Positions 3,214-64,000 of a stretch of 64,000 nt of DNA are shown here, in pieces. The notes under the pieces were generated by a model. It made no database searches and was not told where the DNA came from. It saw only the letters and a program-made list of their open reading frames with translations. The DNA comes from Candidatus Parvarchaeota archaeon (GTDB lineage Archaea; Nanobdellota; Nanobdellia; Parvarchaeales; Parvarchaeaceae): positions 1,706-65,705 of the forward strand of contig JAMCRO010000019.1 in NCBI GenBank assembly GCA_023380615.1, given 5' to 3'. The position numbers were made by a program, and so were the translations under genes. Position 1 is the stretch's first letter, and each line of letters starts with the position of its first letter.

Positions 3214-3726
3214 ATGATGGATAAAATCAGAGAGATGAGCGGATTAACCGACAGAAATATAGTTGATTTTCTTGAAATTAAAAATGGATATAGCATTATT
3301 GATATCGGAGGAAGGGACGGCTTCTTCAGCAAAAAAATGCTGGAAAAAACCAATGATGTCAGTGTTTTGGATTTGAATGATATGTATTTTGACGAACTTA
3401 AACAAGCTGGCATAAAAACCATAAAGGCAGACATTTGTGATTACTCTTCTGGATCATTTGATTTAGTTTTCATGTCAAACGTTTACCATGATCTTGTGCA
3501 GGAATGCGGCAATAAAGCCTTGAAAAATATAAACAAAATTGCAAAGAGATACATAGCCATACTCGATTTCAAGCCGGAAGATACCATGTTCGGCCCTCCT
3601 GTAAGCATAAGACTAAGCAAGGAGAAGGTCATAGCTGATCTGGAAAGCATACACTTCAAACTATTAAAAGAGAAGGAGTTAAAATATCATTACTTTCTAT
3701 TTTTTGAGCGGGAAAACAAGGATTAA
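3214..3726 (+). CDS. small class I SAM-dependent methyltransferase
   Basis: Motif I-like IIDIGGRDGFF, followed by an acidic loop (VLDLNDMY) and a motif IV-like DLVFMSNVYHDL. 170 aa. Confidence 0.55.
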   Translation: MMDKIREMSGLTDRNIVDFLEIKNGYSIIDIGGRDGFFSKKMLEKTNDVSVLDLNDMYFDELKQAGIKTIKADICDYSSGSFDLVFMSNVYHDLVQECGNKALKNINKIAKRYIAILDFKPEDTMFGPPVSIRLSKEKVIADLESIHFKLLKEKELKYHYFLFFERENKD

Positions 3727-29188: not shown

Positions 29189-29928
29189 ACGATTATATCC
29201 CTTAGATCCTTTATTTTCCCAAAATTCAGATTCTCCCCCTCTGATATGCATATTGCGTTTAACTCATTAACGTCGCACATTTCCCTTAAAAACGGCGAGA
29301 GAAGTTCTTCTTTTTTCTCCTCGTTTATATTACTGCCGGGTGCAAATATGCTAGAAGCAGGCAAAACCAGCAGCTTTTTTCCATTGTTTGTATCGCCGTA
29401 AAGGAAGGCCTTCATTTTTTCTCCAGATCCTACGTATCTATAGATTATTACGCTAGGGTGTTCATGGCCTATAATGTAGGTTTCTGCTTCGCATTTAGGC
29501 AACTCATCCCCGTGCGCAATGTAAAATTCCTTTTCGAGTAGATAATCCCGTATTATCTCAACGTCATAGCTGTTTTTTATCCTGTCAAGGTAATTGTCAT
29601 GGTTTCCCTTTATCAGAAGCAGCTTTATAGACAGGTTTTTACAGAACTCTATAAGTTCTCCTATCTCTTTTCTTTCATAGTACTTCAAGTCCGAAAAGTC
29701 GTTCTTTAAATCACCAGTCACTATAAGCCTGTCTGCTCCCGTAGCCATTGCGGCATTTCTTACTATGTTTTCTATAAACTGCAGGTTTCTGCTAGGTATC
29801 AAAGTGCCTGATGCTGACATCTGCCCCTCATAACCCAGATGGGTATCAGATATAATAAGTGAATTAAGCGGCTTGATATAAGCTATCGGCACCCCTTCCA
29901 AAAGTTCTATCGATTCATTTATTTGCAT
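29185..29928 (-). CDS. calcineurin-like metallophosphoesterase (MPE-type DNA repair phosphoesterase partnered with Lhr)
   Basis: ISDTHLG (DxH), VTGDLKND (GDxxD), IKGNHDN (GNHD) and YIIGHEHP (GHxH) are present. The start overlaps the Lhr stop by 14 nt. Confidence 0.7.
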   Translation of the reverse strand: MQINESIELLEGVPIAYIKPLNSLIISDTHLGYEGQMSASGTLIPSRNLQFIENIVRNAAMATGADRLIVTGDLKNDFSDLKYYERKEIGELIEFCKNLSIKLLLIKGNHDNYLDRIKNSYDVEIIRDYLLEKEFYIAHGDELPKCEAETYIIGHEHPSVIIYRYVGSGEKMKAFLYGDTNNGKKLLVLPASSIFAPGSNINEEKKEELLSPFLREMCDVNELNAICISEGENLNFGKIKDLRDIIV

Positions 29929-32551
29929 TTTGATTCTCCCTTATTTTTTCCAATACCAGTTTATGCAGCCTTCTAACGTATTCCTTCTTGTTTTTTATCG
30001 AAACGACATCGCTTTCCCCCATCGTTACAAGGCTGTGTGAAAATGGAGAAGGCACGGAAGTGTCTATTATTGAATACCTTATATTTTTTGTTTTTATCGC
30101 TTTTAATATCTTAGATGCATTGCTCATATCCATTACATCCTCTTCTATCTCCCTGTAGGCTTCCTTTAATATGGGAAAGTTCTCATCCATCTCGCTTATT
30201 ATCCTCAAGAGTGCCTGTGCATTTATCTGCTGCCTTTCTACCCTTATCCTATGCCCCTTGTAATTCCTAAGTATCATCAATCCCCTAGCAGCTGCATGCC
30301 TAAATCTCCTCCTTAGTATCTCCGTTCTTTTTATGTTTTCCGTTATTATCTTCTGTATGTCTGCTTTAGCAGCCGATTCTATGATGCTTTTGATAATAAC
30401 GTCATTCATTTTTTCATTTGAAATCAACGAAAACCCGTTGTCGTTTATCACCAAACCGACCTCTTCTCCAAGTCTGTCGCTTAGGATGAATGCAAATACC
30501 CTTGACAGTGCATCGTTTACCCTCCTGCCAAACAGAGAGTGGAATATCGTGTACTCTTTGTCGTTGTATCTGGTCCTTTCTATAAGAATAAGCTTATCCG
30601 AAGGCACTTTTCCCGTAAAATACACCTGTTCTTTTATATATTCATATATCGAAGCTATTGAATTTTTGTCAGCAGGCATTGAGGCAAGGTATTTACCTGC
30701 CTGTTCAGGCATGTTTTTCTGGTTTTTATAAACAAACTTCTCTCTTGGAAGCCTGCTTATAATCGATGAAAACTCCCTCCTGAATTTGCCTATATCCAAT
30801 GCTAGCTCATAGCTTAGAGGGAGCTGCTCTGAAAACCAAGGGGGTATGTTTGGTTTTTCCCCGATTGCCGGCAAAACAAAGCAGTCCGCGGCACTGGATC
30901 TTTGGAATTTATAGACCTTGCCGCCCAATACAAAAACGTCCCCTTTTTTCAGTTTTTCCAAGAACTCTTCTTCGATGTTTCCTATTTTTTTCTTTGTACC
31001 CCAGATATAAACGTTTATTGCAACTTCATCGGGTATAGTCCCTATGTTTGTATAATATATAAGTCTCGTAAGCCTTCCCCTCTTCCCGAATTTGTTTGAG
31101 CTGTTGTCAAACCAGATTTTTCCATAAACGGATCTTTCACGCAACGGAACGTACTCTCCCGCAAGGTATTTTATAAGGCCCAGAAAATCTTTTTTATCCA
31201 GGTTTCTAAAAGGGTAAGCCTTCTTTATCAATGAGTATGCCTCATTAACGCCCCATATCCTGTTCAGGGCCATGCCGACTATGTGCTGTGCCAATACATC
31301 CAATGGATTTTCAGGCATAGTAAAAGAATCCAATTTCCTTTTTAAGCCATCGTAAAGCATAACAGTGCATTCAACCAAATCATCTCTGTTATTTATTATC
31401 AAATCACCGTTTGCAGTGTCCTTGAAGCCATGCCCGCTCCTTCCTATTCTTTGCAGCGCTCTTGTTATGCTTTTTGGTGAGTTTATCTGTATGACATTGT
31501 CTATGCTGCCTATGTCAATCCCTAATTCCAGACTGGTTGAGGAAACAACACATTTCAGCTTTCCATTCTTTAATTTCTCTTCAACGGAAAATCTCTCTTC
31601 CCTGGAAAGAGAGCCATGGTGTGCGGACACTTCTTCATCGGTATAACCGAATCTTCTTTTAAGGTTAAAAACCAGCCTTTCCGTACCGCTCCGTGTGTTT
31701 GTAAATATCAGTGTTGTCCTGTTCTTTTTTACTATGTTGTTGATTATATTATACATTGATTCGTCTATTTCTGATTCTTTTGAATATATAAGATCCTTGA
31801 CTGGAGAAATGACTTTGGCGTTTATTTTCTTGCTCCACGATGCATCTACTACTACGCAGCTCCTTTTTGTGCCTACAAGAAAACTTGCCGCTCTGTCCAG
31901 AGGGAATATTGTTGCACTCAACCCTATCCGTATGAAATCATGTTTTATTGAATCTGCCAGCCTTTCCAATGAAATTGAAAGATGCGAACCCCTCTTGCTG
32001 TTCGCAAGTTCATGCAGCTCATCCACTATTACATACTCCAAATTGACAAATTTCTGTATGAATTTGGGGGAATTCAACATTATTGCAAGAGATTCCGGTG
32101 TGGTGACAAATATATTTGGAGGGTGGACAAACTGCTTCCTGCGTTCGTTTTGTGGAGTATCCCCTGTCCTAACGCCGATTGTTATCTTTCTTTTATCGGT
32201 TAATTCCGGACTTTTATATATGTCTTCAATCGGTAGAATAATGTTTTTGTAGATATCATTGTTTAATGCTCTCAATGGAGAGATATAAAGACACTTTATC
32301 TCATCATTTAGTTTGCCCTCAACTGAAAGATCTACCAGTTCATTTATTATGGGTATAAATGCCGACAGGGTTTTGCCGCTGCCTGTAGGCGCAGTTATCA
32401 GCACATTTTTTCTATCACTTATTACCTTAAAAGAAAACTTCTGTGGAGGAGTCAACTCTTTAAACCTAGATACAAACCATTTTCTCATCACGGGATTTAA
32501 GGTCTTAATACTCTTATCATCAGGGTATTGCTCGTTCAGTATTGTTATCAT
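29915..32551 (-). CDS. lhr: Lhr-family (Lhr-core) ATP-dependent SF2 DNA helicase
   Basis: Motif I ITAPTGSGKTLSAF, motif II VIVDELHELANSKRG, III LSAT, IV IFTNTRSGTE, V/VI HHGSLSREER...SSTSLELGIDIG...QRIGRSGH are present. A long C-terminal Lhr-core extension follows. 878 aa. Confidence 0.8.
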   Translation of the reverse strand: MITILNEQYPDDKSIKTLNPVMRKWFVSRFKELTPPQKFSFKVISDRKNVLITAPTGSGKTLSAFIPIINELVDLSVEGKLNDEIKCLYISPLRALNNDIYKNIILPIEDIYKSPELTDKRKITIGVRTGDTPQNERRKQFVHPPNIFVTTPESLAIMLNSPKFIQKFVNLEYVIVDELHELANSKRGSHLSISLERLADSIKHDFIRIGLSATIFPLDRAASFLVGTKRSCVVVDASWSKKINAKVISPVKDLIYSKESEIDESMYNIINNIVKKNRTTLIFTNTRSGTERLVFNLKRRFGYTDEEVSAHHGSLSREERFSVEEKLKNGKLKCVVSSTSLELGIDIGSIDNVIQINSPKSITRALQRIGRSGHGFKDTANGDLIINNRDDLVECTVMLYDGLKRKLDSFTMPENPLDVLAQHIVGMALNRIWGVNEAYSLIKKAYPFRNLDKKDFLGLIKYLAGEYVPLRERSVYGKIWFDNSSNKFGKRGRLTRLIYYTNIGTIPDEVAINVYIWGTKKKIGNIEEEFLEKLKKGDVFVLGGKVYKFQRSSAADCFVLPAIGEKPNIPPWFSEQLPLSYELALDIGKFRREFSSIISRLPREKFVYKNQKNMPEQAGKYLASMPADKNSIASIYEYIKEQVYFTGKVPSDKLILIERTRYNDKEYTIFHSLFGRRVNDALSRVFAFILSDRLGEEVGLVINDNGFSLISNEKMNDVIIKSIIESAAKADIQKIITENIKRTEILRRRFRHAAARGLMILRNYKGHRIRVERQQINAQALLRIISEMDENFPILKEAYREIEEDVMDMSNASKILKAIKTKNIRYSIIDTSVPSPFSHSLVTMGESDVVSIKNKKEYVRRLHKLVLEKIRENQNANK

Positions 32552-47134: not shown

Positions 47135-47241
47135 ATCATTAATTTAATTACTTTTTAATTGTAAATCATAGATGATTTCTAATATAAATAGTTAACTGTT
47201 ATCGATATTTGACAAAGAATCATGGCTTTCAAAAAAGCAGC

Positions 47242-47757
47242 TCATCTAAAATAAGAGGCACTCTTGTAATCTGATAATCTAATACTAGTTGCCGCAACAA
47301 GTTTTTTAAAGGATTCTTTATCTAGATCTTTTATAACATCATAATTTAAGTATACTTTGTAATCACCTGAATTCAAAGGCTTTATGTAGGCGGCAGGCCT
47401 AACATTCCCATTAACTTTTACACCAAAGTATTCTCTCTCCAAATCAGGGTACCTTGTCCTGTAAACCCCTGACATGTAAAACAGAGGAACGCTGTCGTTC
47501 ATAGCATTACTACCATAGTCAGATACGCTACCGCTCTTTATTATATAATCACTTGATTTCCCTGGAAACTTTGAATCTTCCTTTCTTTTTCTTACGAGTT
47601 CAATTTTTATGTTCTTGAAATAATCCGATAAATCATTATAAGGAAATTTCAATATCTTTTCAGGATCTTCATTATTTAAATCATCAAGGATTACGTCTAG
47701 ATTTTTCCTCAATTTATCAAGGCCTTTGAACGCTTTATTTATATTTTTTCCTAACAT
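47242..47757 (-). CDS. hypothetical lysine-rich soluble protein
   Basis: The ORF is intact (171 aa) and is the first gene of the co-directional block 47757 to 44784. Confidence 0.4.
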   Translation of the reverse strand: MLGKNINKAFKGLDKLRKNLDVILDDLNNEDPEKILKFPYNDLSDYFKNIKIELVRKRKEDSKFPGKSSDYIIKSGSVSDYGSNAMNDSVPLFYMSGVYRTRYPDLEREYFGVKVNGNVRPAAYIKPLNSGDYKVYLNYDVIKDLDKESFKKLVAATSIRLSDYKSASYFR

Positions 47758-47808
47758 GCTTTTAAAAGAATACTAATCTTATAAAAGCTTTTCCATTTTA
47801 AATTAAAA

Positions 47809-50866: not shown

Positions 50867-50993
50867 ATAATATTTTTCACTTTATAATTTAGTGAATAAG
50901 TTAAAATATATAATTTCATCATGCAAAAGAGAGAAAAAAAGCAAAAAGTATTTATGTAAGTTGTCTTCTAATATAGATTGAGGGGATGAAAAT

Positions 50994-51089
50994 ATGTCAA
51001 GCATAGTTTTGGTAGGTGCAGCGGTTTTGTACTTATTGATACTTATAGCCATAATACTTAGAAACAATTCCCTTGCCGCAAAGGTTTGA
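50994..51089 (+). CDS. 31-aa single-TM peptide (MSSIVLVGAAVLYLLILIAIILRNNSLAAKV) with SD-like GAGGGGATGA upstream
   Basis: It lies in an intergenic space between nth and dcd. The purine-rich GGGGATGA sits 6 nt before the ATG. Confidence 0.2.
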   Translation: MSSIVLVGAAVLYLLILIAIILRNNSLAAKV

Positions 51090-51129
51090 GAATTGAAAAA
51101 ATAGGCTTGGTATCAATTATTTGTACTTA

Positions 51130-51648
51130 TTAAGGTCTGATTTGATTCGTAAATTTGCCGGAGTATTTTGCCTTTCCTTTTAACTCCTCAAATACTATCT
51201 GACAGATCTTAGTATTCGGTTTTATAGCCAGTGCTATCGGCGATAAATTGGCCATTTCCAATACTATTTTACCGGAAGTACCTGGCTGCATGAAACCACT
51301 GCTTATGTGTGTTAACAGCCCCAACCTTGCAAATCTTGACCTTCCGTCTATCCTGGCAGAGATGTTCTGCGGAAGAGATACCTTTTCTATTGTTATGGCA
51401 TGAACAAGTTCTCCAGGCTGAATAAGAAAGCTTTCCCCTTTTTTTATCTTTATTTCTTCCGTCAGTTCCTTATAATCTGTAGAATCATCCACTATAACCA
51501 TCTTGTTTATCTTTTTGAATACTCTGAAAACATAGCCCAATCTAAGATCAACCGAGCCTGGCCCTATCTGTTTCCTGTCCAATGGGCTTATCTTTAATTC
51601 CTTAGAATCTAGAAGCTTTATTATTTCATCATGTGATAATACCGACAT
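51130..51648 (-). CDS. dcd: dCTP deaminase
   Basis: GPGSVDLRLG and IDGRSRFARLGLLTHISSGFMQPG are typical of the Dcd/dUTPase fold. The start is set at the internal MSVLSHDEII. Confidence 0.85.
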   Translation of the reverse strand: MSVLSHDEIIKLLDSKELKISPLDRKQIGPGSVDLRLGYVFRVFKKINKMVIVDDSTDYKELTEEIKIKKGESFLIQPGELVHAITIEKVSLPQNISARIDGRSRFARLGLLTHISSGFMQPGTSGKIVLEMANLSPIALAIKPNTKICQIVFEELKGKAKYSGKFTNQIRP

Positions 51649-51696
51649 AATTACTTGAATACGCCTATTCATTAAAAACATTTATTTTTATAGGCT

Positions 51697-54600
51697 TTAG
51701 GGTAGTACACTGCCCAAGCTAACGGAAGGCATTACGCCGTCTGGAGGATATACACGAATTCTAAACCAATATATTGGTCCTATTTGCGGTGAAGTAGTAC
51801 TTTGTTCTCCTATTATACCAATCTTTAGGGAGGATGAAGGATTAGTAGTTATTTTCCCCTTTGAACCGTAATTATAGGAGAAATAAGATGCAGAAGAATT
51901 CGGCCAATAAATCTGCCATAAATTAGTTCCTGAGGTCGTTGGTGAACTTAAAGCTGTTCTTGTTCCTCCATCTGTTTGTATTGTCTGCGGGTAAGCTGTA
52001 GATATAGAAAGACTTCCTGTTCCACTGTAATCTAACATAGTCCAAGCAACTTGCATATCATAGGAAGTAGTGCCTGTGATAAAGCCTATAGCTGACTGAT
52101 CTGCAGAGGTTGATGAAGGGATATCCCCGTAAAATTCAAGTAGAGTATCTGAACTTGGGCCGTAAGTATCGTTTGTTTCAATAGCCCCTGTTCCGCTTGA
52201 GGGGTTTATGGTTACGCCATTATTTATGCTCACTGTTCCAGAAGATGTCCATCCAGATGGAACTGTAGTTCCAGCGAAATTCCAGTATTCAGTGAATACA
52301 TCTACCCCATCGTCATATTCCCCATACGTTGAAGAAAGCTGTGGAGCTTCGCCAGTATTGTTGGTATTAAACAGATTTGTATCATTTGATGCAAAGCCTA
52401 TTGCAACGTCTTGTATGGTCGTATCTGCAGGTATGCCGTTCGGCAATTTGATCCAGAATATGGCGTACTTTGAAGTGTAGCTCTCAAGCCATGAATCTAG
52501 TACCTTGCCGGTTGCAATGTTAAAGAACTCAACGTTTTGTAAGGAATATTTGCCAGTCTGGTTTATGTATTGGCTATCTGATGAAGTTATAGTCAAATTA
52601 ATCATCTGCTGGAATGGCACTGAAGTAGGAATAGACTGAGCATTGGTTATATTTATCGGCATATAATAAATTAAGGAAGAAGACAACTGTGGGTATATAT
52701 CTCTTGTTATTGTAATAGAATTTGCAGTATAATTCTGATTTCCACTAGTATTTAGAACTATAGTATAGTTTCCTACACGACTACTTAAATTTAATGTTGT
52801 ACTTTTGTTTATAGTTTTATTAAAAATGCCATTTATATACAATGTTGCATTTAACTGGTTGTTAATAGTAGATATCGATACGTTTATTATGAGACTTGTT
52901 CCATTATATAGATAATTTTTGTTAGGATTTGACACCAGATTAAGTACGGGAGTTGCTTTGTTTATTGTATTATAATAGGACACATTTTTTATGCTCGTGG
53001 AATTGGATCCTCCGATTACTTTTATTTTCCCTGCAGCAAAAAGATTAGAATATGTTGAAATATTGCCAGATAAATTGGTTAAAGATACTACTGAATTATT
53101 TAACTCCTTCCAAAGTTTGACATAGTGATTATCAGACTCAACTGTAAAATTACTATCTTTACCATAAATCATTGTAATATTATTGTTCGAGATGCCGTTT
53201 ATAAACAGAGTTATTGGTTTCGTAACTAATGTATTTAATTTAACAGAAGGCATTACGCCGTCTGGAGGGTAAGCACGAACATTAACCCAATAAACAGATA
53301 TGGGATTAGTATACTCATTAGTTAAAGATAAACCAATCGATGATGAATATGCTGGAATAGTAGTTGTTATGGTTTGTCCTGAACTTCCTAATGTTGAATA
53401 GGTATTTGGATTATAAAATAAAACTTGCGTGTCCGTAGCGGCTATACTCCATATAACGGAAGTATTTGCTAAAGAACTCCAAGAACCTATCTCATTTTGT
53501 GTTCCTGATGAGCCAGCATCTGTATTTGCATACCAATTTCCATTATCATATATCTGTTCGCCAAAAGATTGTGTAGATGAACCTCCAAAGTAAGTTGGAT
53601 TTGAATTTGTAAATCCCCATCTAAATGTTGTATTAGTTGAGGGGCTATTTTCATAAACATCTGCCACTACAGATCCATCGAAACTTCCAGAACTTAAAGA
53701 GGTTTTAATCCAAGTTTGATGAGAAAGCCCTCCTGTTCCGCCACCTGTTAAAGTTAATTTATTACTCACTATAATATCTGAGGTAGAACCACTTGTTCCT
53801 GAACTGCCAAAGCTGCTCCACTTTGTAGTATTTAAACTAGTTCCTTTAAAGTTATCGTAAAAATTGAATACATTGGCTCCATCGTCGTATTCTGCATATG
53901 TAGGGGATAGCTGAGGTGCTTCACCAGTATTATTAATGTTAAACAGATTTGTATCATTGGATGCAAAGCCTATTGCAACGTCTTGTATGGTCGTATCTGC
54001 AGGTATTCCGTTCGGCAATTTAATCCAGAATATGGCGTACTTTGAAGTGTAGCTCTCAAGCCATGAATCTAGTACCTTGCCGGTTGTAGTGTTAAAAAAC
54101 TCAATATTTTGGAAGGAATGTTTGCCAGTCTGGTTTATGTATTTGTTATATGATGAGTTTAACGTTAAATTAATCATCTGCTGGAAAGGCTGTTTAGTAG
54201 CAGAAGTTTGAGAGTTGGTAATGTTCAACACTGCGTATTTGTAAATACTTTGAGGAGTAACTAAGCTATGTTTAGAGAAGTTTATCGTAAGTTTTCCAAA
54301 TGAAACCGTATAACCGGAAGAAGAATTTGGTACATAAATTTCACTTGAAAAGGTTATATTGTTGATACTGTAACTGTAATTGCCAAAATTACTTGCAAGT
54401 GTTATCAAGTTTGAGATTGAAGAGTTCACTTTATTGTCGTATTTCACAGTCCAATTGGTACCCGAAGGAAGCCCTTCTTCAACAAATTGCTTAATGCATG
54501 CCCAGCTAGATATGTTGTTAGAAGTTCCTGGGTCTGCAATGCCATTGGACGAACAACTTATGTTTGACCCCGCAGAATAAGTATAAATAATCGAATTAGA

Positions 54601-57600
54601 GGAATTAAAGTTTATTTTTATCGCACTCCCAGTTTTATTGCTATTGTTTACCCCGTTGTAATCAACCCACCAATTATTGCCTTTAGGCAGTGTACTCTGA
54701 TTGAAAGTAGTGGTGCAGTCCCAATTAGAAAAGACATACGTAGAACCTGCCTCAACGGATGCGGGCTTTACCCTGCACGACATATTAGTTGACGCCGTTG
54801 CAGTATAATTACCATACGGAATATTGTGAATTATTATCGTATTATTCGAATTATTTAAAGAGGTCTTTGGCGCAATAAATGACACTGTTGGCATAACACC
54901 GTTAGGATATGAAAGTGCTATAGTTGGAGCTGTCAAAATGAATCCTCCTGGACCACAGCTCCCCCCGCCGTTTCCTCTAGAAGTGCCCAAGAGATACTGC
55001 CCAGGGGGTAAATTGACTGAACCGTAGGATGATAGACAGTAGGGTGTGTTAAAGAAATCGTTGAAATATGATTTGCCGGTTGAAACGCTGATTATACTCA
55101 ATCCAGAGTAACCCCCGCTTCCACCTGCCATGTAAATATTAACATCTCCCCCTCCCCATGAACATATCATTTCATTATTTCCTCCAGGATAGTTCTCCAT
55201 GTTAAAGAAATCGCCACATGATGTGTAATTTTCACTTAGCTTTACGGGAAGCTGGGAACCTGTTGAGGGTTGAGGGTACGGGCCTAACTTTGGAGATACA
55301 CTTGAATTAAGGCTATTAAGTACATCTGTAGAATTCGATGCAAACCCTATATAAACATATGTAAACGAATTGGCAGGTATCTCCCCCAAATCTAACCAGT
55401 ATACCGCATCGTTACTGTAGCCGTAGTTTTCAAGCCAACTGGAAATTATTGTTCCGTTTGGATAGAAAAATTCAACATTTTGGAAATTGGATGCTGCGAG
55501 ACCCCCGTAAACTGTATTATTTACAGTTACCATTTGCTGGAAAGAAGACGCTGTGGAAACATTCTGAAAATTGCTTATTTTTAAAAGCTTATATTTTGTT
55601 ATGTTACTTAAATCTGAAGTTTGGGATGCAGAAGTACTTCCATTTTTGCCATCGAAAGCAACAGACCAGTTACCTATAAGACCCTTCTCTGAGAAAACAG
55701 TTGTACAGAGATCAGACGATAATGAAAAGTGAATATTAATAATAGCCCCTGCATTTTCTTTGGAATCAGTAACGTTTGAAGTATATGTAGATATACAGTT
55801 TAAGGTTGATGATTTATTTGAAGAAGTATAAACTGATAAATTATAACGGCCTGGAACGGTACTAAAAGTCATATAATCAGCTGTTGCGGATTTATTTATT
55901 CCATCAAATGAAGCGTACCAGCGGTACCCTTGCGGTAAACCGGTCTCTGTTAAATTTGTTGTTACCAGCGTAAGATTAATAAAAACAGAAGGCATTACTC
56001 CATTTGGAGGATAGGCACGTACACGAATCCATTGATATTGCTGATCAAATGACGCCCCATTACCTGTGTTATAATCCCCCAAATTAATATAAAGAGGTGC
56101 AGAAGGATTATCGGAAGTAGTTGAAGATGTGGATCCGTAATTAAGAAAAGTAGTTACTCCATTAACTGAAGATAATGAAACGGAATAGATGTTCCAGTTC
56201 AAATTATAGGATGTTGATTGGAGATATGTATATGCCCCATTAAGAACACTTTCGGATTGGATAATATCCCCTAAATTGTCCTTTCCTGCCGACCACCCTG
56301 CAATTGTATCTCCAGTTCCACCATTATTATCCCAAACAGGCTCTGAATTGCTGACAGTAGATATCCCTATAAGTCCTCTTTCATTTCCAGTATTTCCCTT
56401 ATTTTGATTAATGTAACCTTCCAATATCTCATTATTACTAAATACCTGATGAGTAGTTGCAACATATGTCGAACCAGACGTGCTTCCATCTCCACTTATG
56501 GTAAGACCGTTATCTACGGAAACTTTTGACCCTGAAACCGCACCAGAATTCCATATATTTGTATTTAAACTTGTTCCGTTGAAGTTAGCATAGAAGTTAA
56601 ATACATTTGCCCCATCATCATATTCCGCATATGTTGAAGATAACTGTGGTGCCTCTCCTGTTGTGTTGATATTGAAATTATTGGAATAAGCTAGGAGGGT
56701 CTGATTGAATATCATGTCAATGGCTATGCTGCTTTCCGCCGGAATGCTTTTAATTTTTAGCCAGTATACAGTATCATTTGAGGTATTCGAATTACCAGAT
56801 TCCAACCATGAAGGAATAACTGTTCCATTCTGATATGTAAACATTATGTTTGTTAATTTGGAGTTTTCATCTTTTGAATATTTTGAAGAGTTAAAAACAA
56901 GCATCTGCTGGAAGGGTTGTGAAGTTGCTGTTGACTGGTTATTATAAAACGAAATAGGGATTATAACGGGCTTTTTATAAGCAGAAGTATCATTTGAAAA
57001 TACAAATGTTGCATTAGATCCGGATGCAATGAATCCACCAGATATATTAGACAAAAAGCCAGAGTTGTAGTCTACTGATGGATAAACCTTGAAAGTATAA
57101 TTATCACTATAAGAAGTTGTAAATTCCATAATATTTGACTTAGAAGAACCATTTTTACCGTTTAAATTTACTATCCAGGTATAACCTGATGGAAGCCCTT
57201 CTTCTTTAAAGTAGGTATGACAAACGCTACTGAAATTGATCATTTCTGTAGAGCCTGAAGTGACACTGCCAGAAGAAGGGACTGGAATAAAATTACACTG
57301 CGATTGGTTTTCAGCTTGTACCGAAAAACCAAAAGAAGACAAAGCAGAGGTATTGAAAGTAATATTGCTGGAGATGGAAGAATTCTTTATACTGTTATAT
57401 GTAACTGACCAATTATCTTTTAAAGGCAAGCCGGTTTCATTAAATGTAGTTATACAAAAGGAAACTGAAAAACTTACATCTGTATCTGAACCTGCAGCAA
57501 TACCGCCGTTTGCAGGAGTAGCAATGTATCTACAGCCTGCAATATTCACTGCAGGCACTGTAAAGTTATACAGCCCTTTGGTGGTATTTAAAGAAATATA

Positions 57601-60600
57601 TTTTTTGGTAGATGAATTTGACATATTTGCAAAGGTTACGCCCCATTTTGTACTGCTAGGTAAACCGGATTCGGTGAAATTAGAGATACAATAATCTTCC
57701 GTAAACTTTACATAGGTATAATGGCCTGCTTGTGCATAACCATTTGATTCATTGGAAACAAAATAACAATTATGGTAATCAATAGATGGCACAGAAAATG
57801 AATAATTACCACTTATAATATTGAAACTTATGTCCGATAAAGAAGATGAATTAGTCAGATTATCGTACTTTACAGCCCAGCTAATTCCGGACGGTAAGCC
57901 GGTTTCTATAAATTCGGAATAACAGTAATTTGAAAAGCTAATAATTGTGCTTGATCCAGCAGTTAAATAGCCGCTGCTTGGATCTGGCGTAAGATAACAG
58001 TTTGTTGATACTTGTATCCTTGGCACTGAAAAAGAGAAGTTTCCATAAATAGAGTCCACATCCAATGAACTATTAGAAGAATAATTTGTTATACCGTCGA
58101 ATTTAACACTCCAAGTTATTCCTTTTGACAAACCTGTTTCATTAAATAAAGTTATACAAGAAGAAGAAAAAGAAAGAAGTAAAGAAGAGCCTGCAGCAAT
58201 GTGACCGTCGCTTGGATTTGGAGTAAAGACACAGCCACCATCTTTTATGCTGTATGCAGTAAAGTTAAAAGTACCCGGAATCGTTGATAGCTCTAATGAA
58301 GTTTTATTTGAACTGTAATTGATATTATTATAAGTTAACGTCCATTTTGTATTAGAAGGAAGGTTACCCTCTGTAAATGTAGTGTAGCATCTTGTCTGAT
58401 TGAATATTAGATATAAAGTTGACCCAGCAGCAAGTTCTGAAGAGCCATTCTTGGCAACATACAGACAGTTATTTAAAGTTAAGTTTTCTACAGTGTACTT
58501 AAAAGTGCCTGGAGGAGTCACAAACTGGATGCTTGTACTTGTAGACGCACTGCTCTGATTATCATATGTTAAATTCCATTCACTTCCCGGTGGCAGCCCG
58601 TTCTCATAGAATACGGTTGTGCATCCTCCACTGTAACTTACGCTAACCCTTGAACCCGCTATCGTATTTCCAGAAGAAGGATTTGGTCGGTATGAACAGC
58701 TGGAATTGCCTATAAATGGCAGACTATACGCATAAGTACCGTTTATTGATGGCACTTTTATTACAGAGGCATTTGATGAAACCGTAGTGCCGTTATATGT
58801 AACAAACCAGTATGTGTTTTTTGGCAAGCCGGTTTCATTGAAAGAAGTAAGGCATGATGCAGTAAAATGAACTGTGAAATAACCTCCTGCTGCGGTACTA
58901 CTAGACAAAGGTTCCGGAGAAAATACACAATTAGATAGATTTATTGGATAAAATTTTGCCGTAAAAATTCCGGGAGGGGTGGTTATTGTAACGTTATTAT
59001 TAGAGGGACTCTCTGTTATCCCGTCAAAGGTAAGCTTCCACTGCGTATTAGCCGGCAAACCCCTCCCTATAAAGGTAGTATTGCAGGTATTTTCAATAAA
59101 TGATATATTTATATTTCCACCTGCGATGAGATAGCCTGAAGCGGGGGAGGGCAAAAAGGAACAATATGAAGAATCAACCGTATTCAAAGAAAAAGAGAAA
59201 TTACCCGGAGTTGTTATAAAGCTTATATTGGATAGGCTGGAAGAATTAAGAATTCCGTCATATTTAACAGACCAAGTAGCACCTGAAGGCAATCCATCCT
59301 GAGAAAATGTGGATAAGCATTCCTTTGTATATGAAATACTGGCAGATTCTCCTGCCACTAAATAGGAAGATTCAGGTTTAGGATAATAAAAGCACCCAGG
59401 CCCTGCATTTATGATTTCGGAAGTATAAGAGTGATTTCCGGGTAAAGCGTATATTATTACTGATTTATTGAAAGAACTTCCAGACACTCCATCAAAATTC
59501 ACATCCCACTCTGTATCATTTGGCAAGCCGGTTTCATTAAAAATAGTCTTGCAAGTGTTTATATAAGTAGCATTGACATACGAGCCTACTTCTGTAGTTC
59601 CACTTGGTGAAGTTAAATTTATATGGCAACCGTCCTCTGAAATGCTTTTAGGCTTTATATGATAATTATAAGAGTTATTCGAGAAAGAGTCATTAAATAT
59701 TATTTTTGAAGTATTGGATGCTTTTGATAAAACATTGAAGGTAACATTCCATTCACTATCGCTTGGTAAGCCAGTTTCCTTAAAAGTAGTAAGACAGAAT
59801 ATTCCTGTGAATTTAATATTCAAAATAGATGATGTGTTGAGTGTACCCTGTGTTACGTTTGAAGTATAGAAACAGCCGCTACTTTCAGCAGTGAATACTT
59901 TAAAGTTATACGATCCTTCGTTTGTTAAGAATGAAATTTGATTGGAGTTGGAGGAAGCGTTTATATTATTAAAGGACACATACCAGTCTGTCCCTTTCGG
60001 AAGACCGGTTTCCTTAAAAGAGGTTATACAGTTATCTCCAAAGATTATAGAAAGGTTATTACCGGGAGCTATTGATCCGGAAGAGGGCTGTGGGTCATAT
60101 GCACAGAATGTATTTATTGGTACGCTCTCTACGGAATACGGATTGGCGGATGAATTTGAGGAACTAACTATTATTTTATTTGAGGTAGAAGAATATAATT
60201 TGTAGGAATATATTTCAGATGGATTTGGCAAATTATAATCAAAATAAGAGGGAAAAGAATCATTTACTTCCCACTTTGTACCGTTAGGTAAGCCAGTTTC
60301 TGTAAAAATAGTCTTGCATGCAGCACTAAAATGAACCGTAATATGAGAACCTGCAACTAATATCTCATTATAACTTGTAGAAAAAACACAGCCGTTTATA
60401 CTTACAGTAGGGATATGAACAGAGTAGTTTCCTGGATCCGTTGTGACTACGGTAAAATTCCTTGTTGAATAATTAGTTATATTGTCTATCGAAACGCTCC
60501 AATTTACATTTTTGGGCAGGCCTGTTTCAGTAATATTAGAAGTACATGAGCTTGGAGAGAAATAAACGCTGGCATTTCCACCTGAAACAAGATTACCGCT

Positions 60601-63363
60601 AGAATTAAGTGATTTAAAAATACAGCCTTTACCAAAGGTGTTTGGCACGTTGTAAGAATAATTTCCAGGCGGGTTTAATATAGACAAATTGTCTTTGTAT
60701 GTTGAAATGGTATTTCCATCGTAAGTTACGGACCATTGCACATTGTTGTAAAGCCCAGCCTCATAAAAGGTTGATATGCACTTCTCAACATAATTTACTG
60801 TGAGTCCTGTTCCAGCCGTATCGTTCCCAACGGCAGGCTGTGGTATGTAGTAACATGAACTTCCCGCACTAACATTACTTATTGAGTATGGAAAAGTACC
60901 GTAACTGGTCTTTATAGCTATTAATGTACCTATGGAAGAGTTAGACTTACTGTTATAACTAACACTCCAAAGACTGTTTACTGGAAGACCTTTTTCATTA
61001 AAATCCGTATAGCATAAGCTGCTGAAGCCTATGACCGAAGAAGAACCTGCATATATAAATCCACTAGATTCATTTGGTGAGAACACGCATGTTCCAAGGG
61101 TTATCTTTCCAACCGAAAAAGAATAGTTTCCTGGAAAGCTGCTGAAAGAAATTGAATTTGTCTGGGAATCTGAAGTTGAACCATTAAAAATTACCTGCCA
61201 AGAAGCCCCTTGCGGCAAGCCAACTTCCGAAAAAACTGTATCGCATGTTGTAAGATTAAACGTTACATGTACATCGTTACCAACACTTGTAGATCCGGAA
61301 GTTTGATTTGGCGCATAGTTACAGCCATTGTAGCTTGTCTGCGGTACTTGATAGTAGTACTTACCCTGCGGAAGCAGAAACGATACATTCTGATTTATAG
61401 AATGCTTTGTTATTCCTGCAAATGTTACCGTCCAATTCGCCCCGGATGGCAAACCAGGATCTATAAAATCTGTCGTACAATCATCTGTAAATCCTACTGT
61501 TTCGTTTGAACCTGCCGTTATACTACCAGAAGACGGAGAAGGTACATAATAACACCCCCTACTTATCGGTTGCGAAGCAATTGAAAAAGGATAGGAACCG
61601 TTTACCGTATCAAAATAAATTCCTGTTGACGTTGATAATTTTGTTTTATTATCAAAAGTAGCATTCCATTCAGTGTCATTCGGCAGACCTGTTTCACTGA
61701 AGGTTGTAGTACATTCTCCCGAAAATGTTATAAGTTGGAGTTCTCCCGCAAGTATGGTTCCATTTTTAGGAGAAGGGGTAAATATGCAGTTTCCAACCTT
61801 CAGTACTGACACATTATAATAAAAAGTTTTTCCCTTATAGTAAGGGAATTCTATCGAGGAATTAAACGCTCCGTCTCTTGTCTGATTGTCATAATCCACT
61901 GACCAAGACACCCCTATAGGTAACCCTTTGGAAACAAAAACAGTATGACATGTTTGAGCAAAAGATATAATGAGAGAGGAACCTGCTGTTAAATTTCCAG
62001 TAGAAGGAGTAGGAGAGTATATGCACCCCCCTTGAGTCGCATTTGGAACAGAAAAACCAGCGAATACATTAGATGTATTGAATCTTATTGTATCATAAGT
62101 GGACTGTTGGATTTTATTGTCATACCTTACTGTCCAATTCAAACCTACCGGCAGATTTTTCTCTAAAAAGGATGTTATGCAACTTCCAGAAAAATCAACT
62201 AAAATAGAAGAACCGGCAGCTACTGGATTGCTAGAATTTGCAATTGGACTAAATGTGCAATTCCCAGATATTATTGGCTTTAATTTTAAGTTACTAACCG
62301 TGTAATTAGAACTTATCACCAAGGATGAATCAGAAGAGTGTGCAGTTATGTTATCAAAGGTCGCATTCCACTTTGTACCCACTGGCAAACCTTCTTCACT
62401 TACTGAAGTATTGCATACGGAATTAAAGGTTATCAAAACAGTTTGGCCTACCGTAGCGTTTCCATTTTCTGGATCTGGAGTAAAGATGCAGTTGTTTTTG
62501 TTAATTACTGAGACATTAAATATTGGAATCAAAGAAGCCGAATTGGTGGGAATGAAAACTATCTGAGTAGAATTTGAACTATTTGTTAGATTATCATACC
62601 TTATGGTCCAGGTATATCCTTGCGGTAAACCTGTCTCTAAAAATGTAACTGTATTTGATTTAGAACTGCATGTTGTGAAAAAGATGATATATTCAGATGA
62701 ACCTGCATTAACAGATCCTGATTGGGGATAAGGGTAATAAGGACAACCATTATAGGCTGAATCAGATACTGAAAAAGGGTAATTTCCATAAGAAGAAATG
62801 AAATACGTAGAATTCGTGTTAACATTTCTAGAAACATTGCCATACAAAACTGTCCAGTTTACTTTATTAGGTAAACCATACCTAACAAATGTCGTATTGC
62901 ATACTGCCGAAAACGAAATATGAACGGAATTTCCGGCAGAGGTATTACCTGATTCTGGAGAAGGCAAGAAAGTACAGCCGTTTAAAAAGACTTTATTTAC
63001 ACTAAATGAAAAGCTTTTGAGAAAAGAAGAATAATTTAGATAATTTACATTAGAATAGGATGTACCGGATGGAAGCGAAATAGACCAAAGTGTATTTAAA
63101 GGCAGCCCAGATTCATAGAAAATTGTGTACTTTGGTGCAGGAATGGTGGTATTTGTAATATTTGTAGGAGGAGTAACACTTATATTTTTAGGAGCGGTTA
63201 TTGTTATTGGTTTTAATCCAAACAATTTTGCAATGTTTAAGCCTAGGAAACTATTGAGCGTGCTCAAAAAAAACAAGATTATAAATAGTATGATTATCGC
63301 AATTAAAAACGCTGTAAAGTGTACACTATGGCTTTTCTTTTGAGATTGCGTAGTAGATTTCAT
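51697..63363 (-). CDS. giant (3888 aa) Ser/Thr/Asn-rich surface glycoprotein: N-terminal signal-anchor, more than 20 tandem about 100-aa two-Cys repeats, then at least 4 lectin-like modules
   Basis: N-terminus MKSTTQSQKKSHSVHFTAFLIAIIILFIILFFLSTL. Repeats of the form E.GLP.G..W.V.YDN.T..S......F....G.Y.F.V........C.F.P.P.SG...AGS...I.F...C.T.F fill the first roughly 2300 aa. The C-terminal half carries modules with FQQM(I/V)..N.T, SWLESY..KYAIFWIKLPNGIPADTTIQDVAIGFASNDTNLFN, GEAPQLS.TY(A/G)EYDDG(A/V)(N/D)VF..Y.NF.GT and W.R.R(A/V)YPP(N/D)GVMPS. Sequon density is very high. No C-terminal TM is present. Confidence 0.85.
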   Translation of the reverse strand: MKSTTQSQKKSHSVHFTAFLIAIIILFIILFFLSTLNSFLGLNIAKLFGLKPITITAPKNISVTPPTNITNTTIPAPKYTIFYESGLPLNTLWSISLPSGTSYSNVNYLNYSSFLKSFSFSVNKVFLNGCTFLPSPESGNTSAGNSVHISFSAVCNTTFVRYGLPNKVNWTVLYGNVSRNVNTNSTYFISSYGNYPFSVSDSAYNGCPYYPYPQSGSVNAGSSEYIIFFTTCSSKSNTVTFLETGLPQGYTWTIRYDNLTNSSNSTQIVFIPTNSASLIPIFNVSVINKNNCIFTPDPENGNATVGQTVLITFNSVCNTSVSEEGLPVGTKWNATFDNITAHSSDSSLVISSNYTVSNLKLKPIISGNCTFSPIANSSNPVAAGSSILVDFSGSCITSFLEKNLPVGLNWTVRYDNKIQQSTYDTIRFNTSNVFAGFSVPNATQGGCIYSPTPSTGNLTAGSSLIISFAQTCHTVFVSKGLPIGVSWSVDYDNQTRDGAFNSSIEFPYYKGKTFYYNVSVLKVGNCIFTPSPKNGTILAGELQLITFSGECTTTFSETGLPNDTEWNATFDNKTKLSTSTGIYFDTVNGSYPFSIASQPISRGCYYVPSPSSGSITAGSNETVGFTDDCTTDFIDPGLPSGANWTVTFAGITKHSINQNVSFLLPQGKYYYQVPQTSYNGCNYAPNQTSGSTSVGNDVHVTFNLTTCDTVFSEVGLPQGASWQVIFNGSTSDSQTNSISFSSFPGNYSFSVGKITLGTCVFSPNESSGFIYAGSSSVIGFSSLCYTDFNEKGLPVNSLWSVSYNSKSNSSIGTLIAIKTSYGTFPYSISNVSAGSSCYYIPQPAVGNDTAGTGLTVNYVEKCISTFYEAGLYNNVQWSVTYDGNTISTYKDNLSILNPPGNYSYNVPNTFGKGCIFKSLNSSGNLVSGGNASVYFSPSSCTSNITETGLPKNVNWSVSIDNITNYSTRNFTVVTTDPGNYSVHIPTVSINGCVFSTSYNEILVAGSHITVHFSAACKTIFTETGLPNGTKWEVNDSFPSYFDYNLPNPSEIYSYKLYSSTSNKIIVSSSNSSANPYSVESVPINTFCAYDPQPSSGSIAPGNNLSIIFGDNCITSFKETGLPKGTDWYVSFNNINASSNSNQISFLTNEGSYNFKVFTAESSGCFYTSNVTQGTLNTSSILNIKFTGIFCLTTFKETGLPSDSEWNVTFNVLSKASNTSKIIFNDSFSNNSYNYHIKPKSISEDGCHINLTSPSGTTEVGSYVNATYINTCKTIFNETGLPNDTEWDVNFDGVSGSSFNKSVIIYALPGNHSYTSEIINAGPGCFYYPKPESSYLVAGESASISYTKECLSTFSQDGLPSGATWSVKYDGILNSSSLSNISFITTPGNFSFSLNTVDSSYCSFLPSPASGYLIAGGNINISFIENTCNTTFIGRGLPANTQWKLTFDGITESPSNNNVTITTPPGIFTAKFYPINLSNCVFSPEPLSSSTAAGGYFTVHFTASCLTSFNETGLPKNTYWFVTYNGTTVSSNASVIKVPSINGTYAYSLPFIGNSSCSYRPNPSSGNTIAGSRVSVSYSGGCTTVFYENGLPPGSEWNLTYDNQSSASTSTSIQFVTPPGTFKYTVENLTLNNCLYVAKNGSSELAAGSTLYLIFNQTRCYTTFTEGNLPSNTKWTLTYNNINYSSNKTSLELSTIPGTFNFTAYSIKDGGCVFTPNPSDGHIAAGSSLLLSFSSSCITLFNETGLSKGITWSVKFDGITNYSSNSSLDVDSIYGNFSFSVPRIQVSTNCYLTPDPSSGYLTAGSSTIISFSNYCYSEFIETGLPSGISWAVKYDNLTNSSSLSDISFNIISGNYSFSVPSIDYHNCYFVSNESNGYAQAGHYTYVKFTEDYCISNFTESGLPSSTKWGVTFANMSNSSTKKYISLNTTKGLYNFTVPAVNIAGCRYIATPANGGIAAGSDTDVSFSVSFCITTFNETGLPLKDNWSVTYNSIKNSSISSNITFNTSALSSFGFSVQAENQSQCNFIPVPSSGSVTSGSTEMINFSSVCHTYFKEEGLPSGYTWIVNLNGKNGSSKSNIMEFTTSYSDNYTFKVYPSVDYNSGFLSNISGGFIASGSNATFVFSNDTSAYKKPVIIPISFYNNQSTATSQPFQQMLVFNSSKYSKDENSKLTNIMFTYQNGTVIPSWLESGNSNTSNDTVYWLKIKSIPAESSIAIDMIFNQTLLAYSNNFNINTTGEAPQLSSTYAEYDDGANVFNFYANFNGTSLNTNIWNSGAVSGSKVSVDNGLTISGDGSTSGSTYVATTHQVFSNNEILEGYINQNKGNTGNERGLIGISTVSNSEPVWDNNGGTGDTIAGWSAGKDNLGDIIQSESVLNGAYTYLQSTSYNLNWNIYSVSLSSVNGVTTFLNYGSTSSTTSDNPSAPLYINLGDYNTGNGASFDQQYQWIRVRAYPPNGVMPSVFINLTLVTTNLTETGLPQGYRWYASFDGINKSATADYMTFSTVPGRYNLSVYTSSNKSSTLNCISTYTSNVTDSKENAGAIINIHFSLSSDLCTTVFSEKGLIGNWSVAFDGKNGSTSASQTSDLSNITKYKLLKISNFQNVSTASSFQQMVTVNNTVYGGLAASNFQNVEFFYPNGTIISSWLENYGYSNDAVYWLDLGEIPANSFTYVYIGFASNSTDVLNSLNSSVSPKLGPYPQPSTGSQLPVKLSENYTSCGDFFNMENYPGGNNEMICSWGGGDVNIYMAGGSGGYSGLSIISVSTGKSYFNDFFNTPYCLSSYGSVNLPPGQYLLGTSRGNGGGSCGPGGFILTAPTIALSYPNGVMPTVSFIAPKTSLNNSNNTIIIHNIPYGNYTATASTNMSCRVKPASVEAGSTYVFSNWDCTTTFNQSTLPKGNNWWVDYNGVNNSNKTGSAIKINFNSSNSIIYTYSAGSNISCSSNGIADPGTSNNISSWACIKQFVEEGLPSGTNWTVKYDNKVNSSISNLITLASNFGNYSYSINNITFSSEIYVPNSSSGYTVSFGKLTINFSKHSLVTPQSIYKYAVLNITNSQTSATKQPFQQMINLTLNSSYNKYINQTGKHSFQNIEFFNTTTGKVLDSWLESYTSKYAIFWIKLPNGIPADTTIQDVAIGFASNDTNLFNINNTGEAPQLSPTYAEYDDGANVFNFYDNFKGTSLNTTKWSSFGSSGTSGSTSDIIVSNKLTLTGGGTGGLSHQTWIKTSLSSGSFDGSVVADVYENSPSTNTTFRWGFTNSNPTYFGGSSTQSFGEQIYDNGNWYANTDAGSSGTQNEIGSWSSLANTSVIWSIAATDTQVLFYNPNTYSTLGSSGQTITTTIPAYSSSIGLSLTNEYTNPISVYWVNVRAYPPDGVMPSVKLNTLVTKPITLFINGISNNNITMIYGKDSNFTVESDNHYVKLWKELNNSVVSLTNLSGNISTYSNLFAAGKIKVIGGSNSTSIKNVSYYNTINKATPVLNLVSNPNKNYLYNGTSLIINVSISTINNQLNATLYINGIFNKTINKSTTLNLSSRVGNYTIVLNTSGNQNYTANSITITRDIYPQLSSSLIYYMPINITNAQSIPTSVPFQQMINLTITSSDSQYINQTGKYSLQNVEFFNIATGKVLDSWLESYTSKYAIFWIKLPNGIPADTTIQDVAIGFASNDTNLFNTNNTGEAPQLSSTYGEYDDGVDVFTEYWNFAGTTVPSGWTSSGTVSINNGVTINPSSGTGAIETNDTYGPSSDTLLEFYGDIPSSTSADQSAIGFITGTTSYDMQVAWTMLDYSGTGSLSISTAYPQTIQTDGGTRTALSSPTTSGTNLWQIYWPNSSASYFSYNYGSKGKITTNPSSSLKIGIIGEQSTTSPQIGPIYWFRIRVYPPDGVMPSVSLGSVLP
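52381..52620. repeat. near-identical direct repeat copy 1 (inside 3888-aa gene)
   Basis: tatcatttgatgcaaagcctattgcaacgtcttgtatggtcgtatctgcaggtatgccgttcggcaatttgatccagaatatggcgtactttgaagtgtagctctcaagccatgaatctagtaccttgccggttg... is almost base-for-base the same as 53941-54190. Confidence 0.75.
53941..54190. repeat. near-identical direct repeat copy 2 (inside 3888-aa gene), about 1.56 kb from copy 1
   Basis: See the 52381..52620 entry. Only a handful of mismatches are visible by eye over about 240 nt. Confidence 0.75.
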
Positions 63364-63382
63364 AATACCTTTTTAGACTATA

Positions 63383-63396
63383 ATATCTACAGATAT
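63383..63396. promoter_or_regulatory. perfect inverted repeat ATATCT-AC-AGATAT in the divergent promoter region between the 3888-aa gene and xth
   Basis: The arms are 6 bp with a 2-bp spacer. It lies 20 nt upstream of the giant-gene start codon (minus strand) and 35 nt upstream of the xth ATG. Confidence 0.25.
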
Positions 63397-63430
63397 TCAT
63401 ATAAATACTATATATAGAATATAATAGACT

Positions 63431-64000
63431 ATGAAATTATTTTCCTGGAATGTAAACGGGCTAAGAAGCGTAGTAAGAAAAAACGAGATTCAGAAGATAA
63501 TAAACAGCAGTGAATATGATGTTATTTTATTGCAGGAAACAAAAATCGAAGGGATAAACGGCATAATAAAAACAGACCCATACATTTCATACATAATGCC
63601 TTCAAGGGTAAAAAAAGGGTACAGCGGGGTTATGGCGCTCTGCAAGGAAAAGCCGATGGATGTGATTTATGGCATTGGAAACGAAAGGTATGACAGTGAA
63701 GGCCGGGTAATAACTCTTGAATTCAAGGACTACTTCGTAATAAACAGCTATTTCCCTAATTCAAGGAGGGATTTAAGCAGGCTTTCTTATAAGCTAGAAT
63801 TCAATAAAAGCATACTTGAATTTATGGAAAACCTGAGAAAGAAAAAACCCATAGCGATAGGGGGGGACTTCAACGTTGCACACACTGAATTGGACATAGC
63901 TAGGCCTAAACAGAATGAAGGAAACGCAGGTTTTACTGTACAGGAAAGGAAGTTCGTAGACGAACTTATAGATAATGGATATATGGATACCTTCAGGTTA
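63431..64000 (+). CDS. xth: exodeoxyribonuclease III / AP endonuclease (EEP family), N-terminal 190 aa; gene continues beyond the window
   Basis: MKLFSWNVNGLRSVVRK...VILLQETK... matches the ExoIII/APE1 start (SWNVNG, QETK). The frame stays open to the window end. Confidence 0.85.
   Translation, partial: MKLFSWNVNGLRSVVRKNEIQKIINSSEYDVILLQETKIEGINGIIKTDPYISYIMPSRVKKGYSGVMALCKEKPMDVIYGIGNERYDSEGRVITLEFKDYFVINSYFPNSRRDLSRLSYKLEFNKSILEFMENLRKKKPIAIGGDFNVAHTELDIARPKQNEGNAGFTVQERKFVDELIDNGYMDTFRL

Follow-up and report, generated by a model that had tools for sequence, protein, structure and literature searches.

Intragenic gene conversion and concerted evolution are familiar from the repeats of bacterial adhesins such as the streptococcal alpha-C and Rib proteins and the staphylococcal Aap and SasG proteins, and antigenic variation by cassette conversion is familiar from Neisseria pilE/pilS, Borrelia vlsE, and Mycoplasma genitalium MgpB/MgPar. 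Diversity-generating retroelements (DGRs) are known in DPANN archaea, and their targets provide a further comparison. Here we describe a direct repeat inside a giant gene of a Candidatus Parvarchaeota archaeon, found in a 64,000-nucleotide (nt) stretch of contig JAMCRO010000019.1 that we analyzed as a whole (the window; G+C, 36%). This gene, G1, and a second giant open reading frame (ORF), G2, both lie on the minus strand and encode recurring modules with a DUF2341 domain. We posit that the repeat, a DUF2341-coding segment, quite probably owes its likeness to nonreciprocal homologous recombination, through either gene conversion or mosaic assembly of modules, and not to protein constraint alone. 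DPANN archaea rely on physical contact with host cells. The leading candidates for host recognition are their giant LamG/DUF2341 surface proteins, whose diversification is hardly documented. LamG-like proteins form an expanded family linked to host interaction in ARMAN and other DPANN archaea (PMC5498576, PMC10266531), and DUF2341 proteins have been proposed to serve as type IV pilus adhesins (PMC4858521).

As seen in translation and alignment, the module of G1 and G2 spans about 320 amino acids (aa); its first part, DUF2341, runs from PFQQM to GEAPQLS, and its second part, a domain of about 200 aa, closes with W-R-R-YPPxGVMP. The G1 product begins with a hydrophobic anchor or signal, continues through about 26 tandem Cys-containing repeats of ~78 aa, and closes with four modules, M1 to M4, each a DUF2341 domain plus a jelly roll, which start near aa 2150, 2607, 3059, and 3583. 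In G2, a signal peptide is followed by module 1 (G2M1), immunoglobulin (Ig)-like spacers, module 2 (G2M2), further spacers, and a C-terminal transmembrane anchor with a basic tail. A self-blastn comparison aligns M4 (copy A) with M3 (copy B) over 361 nt without a gap, at 85.9% identity (E = 5e-118) and at a register of 1572 nt, which equals 524 codons and preserves the frame. At both edges identity falls within a few codons from about 90% to 28-29%, the random level, in flanks compared at the same offset, and the remaining module pairs are only 52-55% identical in the same tract.

An earlier note on this DNA, made from the letters alone, had placed the copies 1560 nt apart; identity at that offset is 31%, which is random, and its second interval sits 12 nt out of register. 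Its description of 240 nt matching almost base for base holds for a 148-nt core, where identity reaches 98%, and overstates the match for 52381-52620 overall (91%). A third copy, C, in G2M1 had been put at about 85% similarity; we measure 76-78%, in register at about 20129-20368. The peptide motifs quoted from the two modules are present in both M3 and M4, and the repeat does stand out from other module pairs and from its random flanks, which a dot plot had been expected to reveal if the claim was sound.

Synonymous sites carry the argument for recombination. Over the 95-codon tract, M3 and M4 differ by a synonymous divergence (pS) of 0.29 and a nonsynonymous divergence (pN) of 0.05, whereas comparison of either module with G2M1 gives a pS of 0.61-0.68 at a pN of 0.12 (Fisher p = 5e-4 for the contrast). 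In the core, where M3 and M4 encode an identical peptide, their pS is 0.17 versus 0.61-0.67 against G2M1 (Fisher p = 2e-4). Upstream and downstream of the tract, synonymous divergence (dS) between M3 and M4 is saturated and aa identity is about 28-32%. Because synonymous divergence is so low between M3 and M4 in comparison with G2M1 at similar protein constraint, that constraint alone does not explain the identity. One could nevertheless argue that no recombination took place and that the tract is no more than the best-conserved portion of an old module family, maintained by purifying selection and codon preference; the strong protein constraint, the identical core peptide, and the status of DUF2341 as the sole part that Pfam recognizes would all agree with this. 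However, copy C and its counterpart in a fragment of a G2 ortholog (L003) encode nearly the same peptide (pN 0.06-0.12) and are still close to saturation at synonymous sites (pS 0.61-0.68), against 0.29 for M3-M4 and 0.17 in their core; identity drops sharply at both edges; the phylogenies of tract and flanks conflict; and modules 2 and 3 of a related genome, described below, lack any synonymous difference over 296 nt. The contrast at synonymous sites thus largely refutes an explanation without recombination, which we regard as very unlikely. RNA-level constraint on the core was also considered and rejected: its folding z-score is -0.96, with no unusual structure, and the window has no Rfam matches and no tRNAs.

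The two modules are mosaics. Directly after GEAPQLS, M3 groups with G2M1 and with M1 of G1 (ANVFNFYDNFKGTSLNT), which it resembles at 80% nt identity, and M4 groups with G2M2 (VDVFxxYWNFAGxxxPSGWT). In the 30 codons past the tract, M3 is 80-86% identical to G2M1 and to L4_M4 (module 4 of the related genome L004, below) and 60% identical to M4, whereas inside the tract its nearest relative is M4. The jelly rolls that follow have different affinities: that of M3 is closest to a homolog designated P0005 (79% identity) and then to P0003, P0007, and P0009 (55-63%), and that of M4 is closest to P0001. In P0003, P0007, and P0009, the M3-type jelly roll is preceded by another DUF2341 subtype, and P0005 is cut off before its DUF2341. 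Sharp-edged identity, lowered synonymous divergence, and incongruence between tract and flanks, three features of a conversion tract, are found between M3 and M4.

These same observations bear on a second explanation, a recent tandem duplication of the whole 1572-nt unit of module plus spacer, after which the jelly rolls diverged rapidly under diversifying selection. The copies are in frame and in tandem with a regular period, and lectin-like domains at the cell surface can evolve fast, as such a scenario requires. It would not be expected to leave flanks that are random at synonymous sites too (28-29% identity, dS saturated), nor jelly rolls of different subtypes that are closer to P0001 and P0005 (65-79% aa identity) than to each other (~28%), and the spacer and M3 are orthologous to the related genome whereas M4 is not. 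A duplication of the entire unit is, in our estimate, very improbable.

The related genome, the only one available with a full-length ortholog of G1, is a SPAdes metagenome-assembled genome (MAG) of 4x coverage, Nanoarchaeota archaeon HSP2.bin18 (JAJZBD010000002.1; L004). It carries a syntenic giant gene that is 80-85% identical to the window at the DNA level and that encodes five modules, compared with four in G1. The ortholog of M3, flanks included, is L004 module 4: the two tracts are 90% identical and the flanks are colinear. The M4 tract, by contrast, is 89% identical to L004 module 4 versus 67% to its positional counterpart, L004 module 5, which places it in the M3 lineage. When M3, M4, and the ortholog are compared site by site, the tract separates into two parts: in the core (codons ~35-86), M3 and M4 agree against the ortholog at 11 sites, M4 and the ortholog agree at 4, and M3 and the ortholog agree at none (binomial p = 0.002); in the shoulders, M3 agrees with its ortholog. 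From the DUF2341 subtypes of distant homologs, M4 had at one point been considered the donor to M3; this candidate was dropped in view of the L004 comparison, in which orthology joins M3 and its surroundings to L004 module 4 but does not join the M4 tract to its positional counterpart.

L004 itself offers a clearer case of homogenization, with the caveat of its 4x coverage. Its modules 2 and 3 are identical over 296 nt (6788-7083 and 8456-8751) between random flanks, and its module 5 matches this repeat at 100% over the first 98 nt (11639-11736) and diverges thereafter, so that the tracts differ in length.

We propose that the repeat DNA, which encodes the DUF2341 β-sandwich, a linker, and the opening strand of the ConA-like jelly roll that follows in both M3 and M4, arose in at least two nested events within the gene for a giant, heavily N-glycosylatable, adhesin-type surface protein of a Parvarchaeota/ARMAN-like DPANN archaeon. 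An M3-type DUF2341 segment now stands before an unrelated jelly roll in M4. The older event, of roughly the age of the split from the L004 lineage, would have covered about 360 nt; the younger would have homogenized a core of about 150 nt. The same process probably operates across the gene family, with the DUF2341 segment and the YPPxGVMP 3′ end bounding the jelly-roll cassettes that are replaced. The earlier note had pointed to gene conversion or duplication; gene conversion or partial duplication is supported by the lowered pS, the mosaic structure, the differing jelly-roll homologs, and the 11:4:0 pattern of core sites. Its description of the event as recent suits the younger core; most of the tract dates from about the time when the L004 lineage split off.

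Several points weigh against recombination as we reconstruct it. Whole-tract pS is 0.29 between M3 and M4, against 0.30 and 0.29 in the comparisons with the ortholog (0.30 for M3), and because paralog and ortholog are equally distant, most of the tract is not recent. The signal of an event after the split depends on about 15 informative core sites. Strong purifying selection on the DUF2341 tract inflates identity and could blur the boundaries. The ortholog data come from one low-coverage MAG, whose perfect 296-nt repeat could be partly an assembly effect. We can only infer the direction of transfer, M3 to M4, and at position 4 the two genomes differ in the whole module. Finally, three full-length assemblies of the window type encode an identical protein, and ongoing recombination in the population is therefore not shown.

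Those assemblies also speak to the proposal that the repeat is an artefact, that is, a collapsed, expanded, or chimeric product of short-read metagenome assembly. The source of the window is evidently metagenome assembled, and one of the contigs, L002, switches between strain types elsewhere in the locus. Yet the exact 3888-aa G1 protein recurs on two independent megahit contigs, L001 and L002, from other samples; L001 is 99.94% identical to the window at the DNA level, with one synonymous difference in copy B. The longest exact run, 64 nt, falls short of the final k used by megahit, which the k141 contig names suggest was 141, and short-k Logan contigs from two further runs break off at the edge of the exact runs (52386 and 52396), which is what one would expect if both copies exist. 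Given the identical protein on independent contigs, the Logan ends, and the shortness of the exact runs, an assembly artefact, which the earlier note had named as a way in which its claim could fail, is extremely unlikely.

The difference between L001 and the window, the sole one inside G1, is at position 54162 (TTA/CTA, both Leu). It was tried as a footprint of conversion that moved B toward A and was rejected, since A has a third base there. Contig L002 (ena:ERZ27237492:k141_68067) matches the window (50979-64000) at 100% for at least 13 kb, a stretch that takes in the whole of G1, and then switches abruptly to ~86% identity inside a 99-nt stretch (51078-50978) that is common to both types; the rest is 99.1% identical to L004, which has its own five-module giant gene. 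Either megahit joined two co-occurring lineages into a chimera, or L002 is a real recombinant and gained a whole giant-gene allele.

Whether the number of modules varies, as the earlier note had expected, depends on the scale. It does between lineages (five in L004, four in the window), and the comparison of module counts in a related genome that the note had called for also reveals lectin-like domains replaced at orthologous positions. Within the population as sampled, such variation is not supported: the window, L001, and L002 are identical, and no length variants of G1 occur among these three full-length assemblies, although consensus assemblies cannot exclude rare variants. An exact-pattern scan of Joint Genome Institute (JGI) metagenomes with the conserved core returned no matches, a protein-based scan of the same resource returned just distant relatives (at most 51% identity), useless for population variants, and an exact look-up of the G2 protein found no record elsewhere. 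Deletion or expansion between the copies mediated by RadA, not observed here, is plausible given an offset of 1572 nt that preserves the frame and exact runs of up to 64 nt; a deletion would stay in frame, fuse the DUF2341 domain of M3 to the jelly roll of M4, and remove 524 aa. More generally, a RadA-type mechanism could account for the transfer between the modules.

Between lineages, the alignments show that jelly-roll cassettes have been replaced and modules gained or lost, whereas DUF2341 segments have been retained or homogenized. L003 (ena:ERZ27237502:k141_343314), which represents a co-occurring lineage in the same sample as L001 and is ~80% identical to the window DNA, including the upstream intergenic region, aligns from that region through the tract to 20043, has no match across the jelly roll, and resumes at 19522; a wholly different jelly roll stands between its conserved DUF2341 and spacer parts. 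Colinearity between the window and L004 stops where the M1 tract has its 3′ edge (56630), beyond which L004 has another domain. The last L004 module bears the jelly roll found in G2M1 of the window (79% over 900 nt), and the M4 jelly roll of the window is without a counterpart there. A reciprocal swap of the M4 and L003 jelly rolls was also considered and set aside; by eye they belong to the same broad LPxGW subtype yet are highly diverged.

These replacements invite comparison with programmed variation, either by a DGR with its template and variable repeats (a TR/VR pair) or by an expression site with silent cassettes of the pilE/pilS or vlsE kind. The protein belongs to the surface of a host-dependent organism, highly variable lectin-like cassettes lie between its conserved segments, related lineages show cassettes transferred between one giant gene and the other, and DGRs occur in DPANN archaea. 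The 51 mismatches between copies A and B are mixed, however, with 27 transitions and 24 transversions, 28 at third codon positions, and no adenine bias, and the three full-length assemblies hold no variants. No reverse transcriptase (RT) was found in the 10 other window ORFs scanned against Pfam, the remaining ORFs not having been scanned, and given this and the mixed mismatch spectrum a DGR is excluded. Nor did blastn and tblastn queries with the tract, jelly rolls, and spacer match any silent cassette in the 64 kb; all matches fall inside G1 or G2. Programmed variation of either kind is, on this evidence, highly improbable.

Set against the described systems, the locus resembles the bacterial adhesin repeats in its tandem modules within one large surface gene, in a repeat identity far above what protein constraint demands, in the in-frame spacing that allows units to be gained or lost, and in a module number that differs between lineages. 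It departs from them in that the DUF2341 subdomain alone is homogenized and the adjoining jelly roll is highly diverged, in that identity is 86-98% and not near 100%, and in belonging to a DPANN archaeon in which no length variation within the population has been seen. With pilE/pilS, vlsE, and MgpB/MgPar it shares conserved segments that bracket variable cassettes, orthologous positions that carry different cassettes, and breakpoints at the conserved segments; in contrast to them, no silent archive was found in the window, both partners reside in intact ORFs of the expressed type, and no high-frequency switching is evident, the time scale apparently being that of species divergence. Like the DGR targets of DPANN archaea, it concerns surface proteins of episymbiotic archaea and their hypervariable ligand-binding domains, but the pattern is not adenine specific, the 10 ORFs scanned lack an RT, and whole domains are replaced in place of point mutagenesis.

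A bolder proposal is that the DUF2341 segments and YPPxGVMP ends act as built-in recombination handles by which lectin-like cassettes are exchanged inside either giant gene or from one to the other, and perhaps even a whole allele is transferred between co-occurring species, as L002 could indicate, thereby retargeting host attachment. We consider this unlikely, though if true, handle-based exchange would be an archaeal counterpart of cassette-based surface variation.

What the modules are is best judged from family and fold. Pfam DUF2341 (PF10102; gathering score cutoff, 23.4 bits) matches G1 with 66.4 and G2 with 27.0 bits; taken singly, M1, M3, and G2M1 score 33.0, 32.4, and 40.5 bits, and M4 remains under the cutoff at 16.1 bits. 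Laminin_G_3 (PF13385) has no match at E<=1 in the five isolated modules (M1, M3, M4, G2M1, and G2M2) and is recorded just for more distant homologs. An AlphaFold (AF2) model of M3 has a predicted local distance difference test score (pLDDT) of 75.9 and a predicted template-modeling (TM) score (pTM) of 0.81, and Foldseek matches its C-terminal ~230 residues to GH16 glucanases and the L-type lectins VIP36 and Emp46/47 in the PDB (E of 2.5e-7 to 1e-4; target TM of 0.45-0.65). The domain is thus predicted to be a ConA-like jelly roll, and the earlier note was right to call the modules lectin-like at the level of the fold; carbohydrate binding is putative.

Homologs come overwhelmingly from MAGs of Parvarchaeota/ARMAN-4, Micrarchaeota, and Marsarchaeota and are annotated as DUF2341 or LamG-like; this origin marks the organism as an ARMAN-type DPANN archaeon, one of the tiny archaea of acid mines. 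Two of them, P0003 and P0009 (ARMAN-4 BJBARM4_0839), have a single module with an M3-type jelly roll and begin with QSALEYMMTYGWAIL, a type IV pilin-like (class III) signal sequence, which suggests, judging from the N termini, that relatives may present the M3-type module on pilins. Neither G1 nor G2 has a pilin-like QSALEYMMTYGWAIL N terminus. With the DUF2341/LamG-like surface proteins of archaea, DPANN members included, the window proteins therefore share the DUF2341 match, the predicted ConA-like jelly roll, and pilin-like signals in some homologs; G1 differs in placing four modules behind ~2100 aa of unrelated 78-aa repeats and in its want of a pilin-type N terminus, and the window modules differ in having no Laminin_G_3 match. 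A role of G1 as an adhesin or in host contact would fit this company.

The locus offers a concrete, testable picture in which recombination keeps one subdomain uniform, putative ligand-binding jelly rolls are traded as cassettes, and module number shifts from one related lineage to another. The finding itself holds and its interpretation is right for the most part, and it adds a new example of a well-known process, gene conversion in a modular surface protein, in a family already recognized in DPANN archaea; because that process is well known, being an ordinary route of adhesin gene evolution, the conceptual advance is modest. In practice, the tracts break short-k assemblies at predictable points, and giant adhesin genes will therefore be systematically fragmented or misjoined in metagenomes.

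Table 1. Positions of the giant genes, their modules and repeat copies, and one insertion site (window coordinates unless a contig is named)
Feature	Position	Strand	Remarks and basis
Giant gene G1	51697-63363	-	3888 aa; ORF list, translation, Pfam DUF2341, repeat spacing
G1 module 1 (M1), DUF2341 tract	56638-56916	-	Diverged subtype, ~54% nt identity to M3/M4
G1 module 2 (M2), DUF2341 tract	55282-55545	-	Degenerate module, without YPPxGVMP end
Repeat copy B (M3: DUF2341, linker, first jelly-roll strand)	53865-54225	-	aa ~3047-3166; blastn, Pfam DUF2341; flanks orthologous to L004 module 4
M3 ConA-like (lectin/glucanase-fold) jelly roll	53224-53868	-	C-terminal end YPPDGVMPSV; AF2 model, Foldseek
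Spacer between M3 and M4, Ig-like repeats	52684-53223	-	84% to orthologous L004 region
Repeat copy A (M4: DUF2341, linker, first jelly-roll strand)	52293-52653	-	aa ~3571-3690; blastn
Near-identical core, 148 nt	52367-52514; partner 53939-54086	-	3 mismatches, 98%; exact runs of 64 and 47 nt
M4 jelly roll	51700-52292	-	Subtype unlike that of M3 (~28% aa identity); not orthologous to last L004 module
Giant gene G2	13787-20527	-	2246 aa; ORF list, translation, Pfam DUF2341
Third copy C (DUF2341 tract of G2M1)	20041-20401	-	76-78% DNA identity to A and B; blastn 19992-20400
IS605 OrfB/TnpB-like gene	Window site ~47199-47805 (empty); L002 17131-18336; L004 16438-17643; L005 5567-6772		

The ~78-aa repeats of G1 (57000-63100; aa ~85-2130) are spaced 76-81 aa apart, and each contains two Cys residues and a conserved E-T-G-L-P...W motif; they have no Pfam matches. 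Their DNA identity is merely 60-80% over short motifs, and homogenization is not apparent, in contrast to the DUF2341 tracts. The density of NxS/T sequons in this region is about 5 per 100 aa. The spacer between M3 and M4 has tblastn matches at 35-45% to repeated related spacers in G2. In G2 module 2 (17039-17842), a Cys- and Gly-rich insertion of ~170 aa splits DUF2341 between SWLES and VYWIKL.

Two genes for DNA repair or recombination lie near G2: a UvrD-type helicase fused to a PD-(D/E)XK nuclease (20639-23359, plus strand) adjoins it divergently, and an Lhr-type helicase (29915-32551, minus strand) is 9 kb off. The lineage of the L004 type carries a 401-aa IS605 OrfB/TnpB-like gene (Pfam OrfB_IS605 and Cas12f1-like_TNB) that is absent at the corresponding site in the window and L001. 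Self-blast also picks up a 125-nt direct repeat, 146-269 versus 2809-2932, at 73.6% identity, which has no relation to the giant genes.

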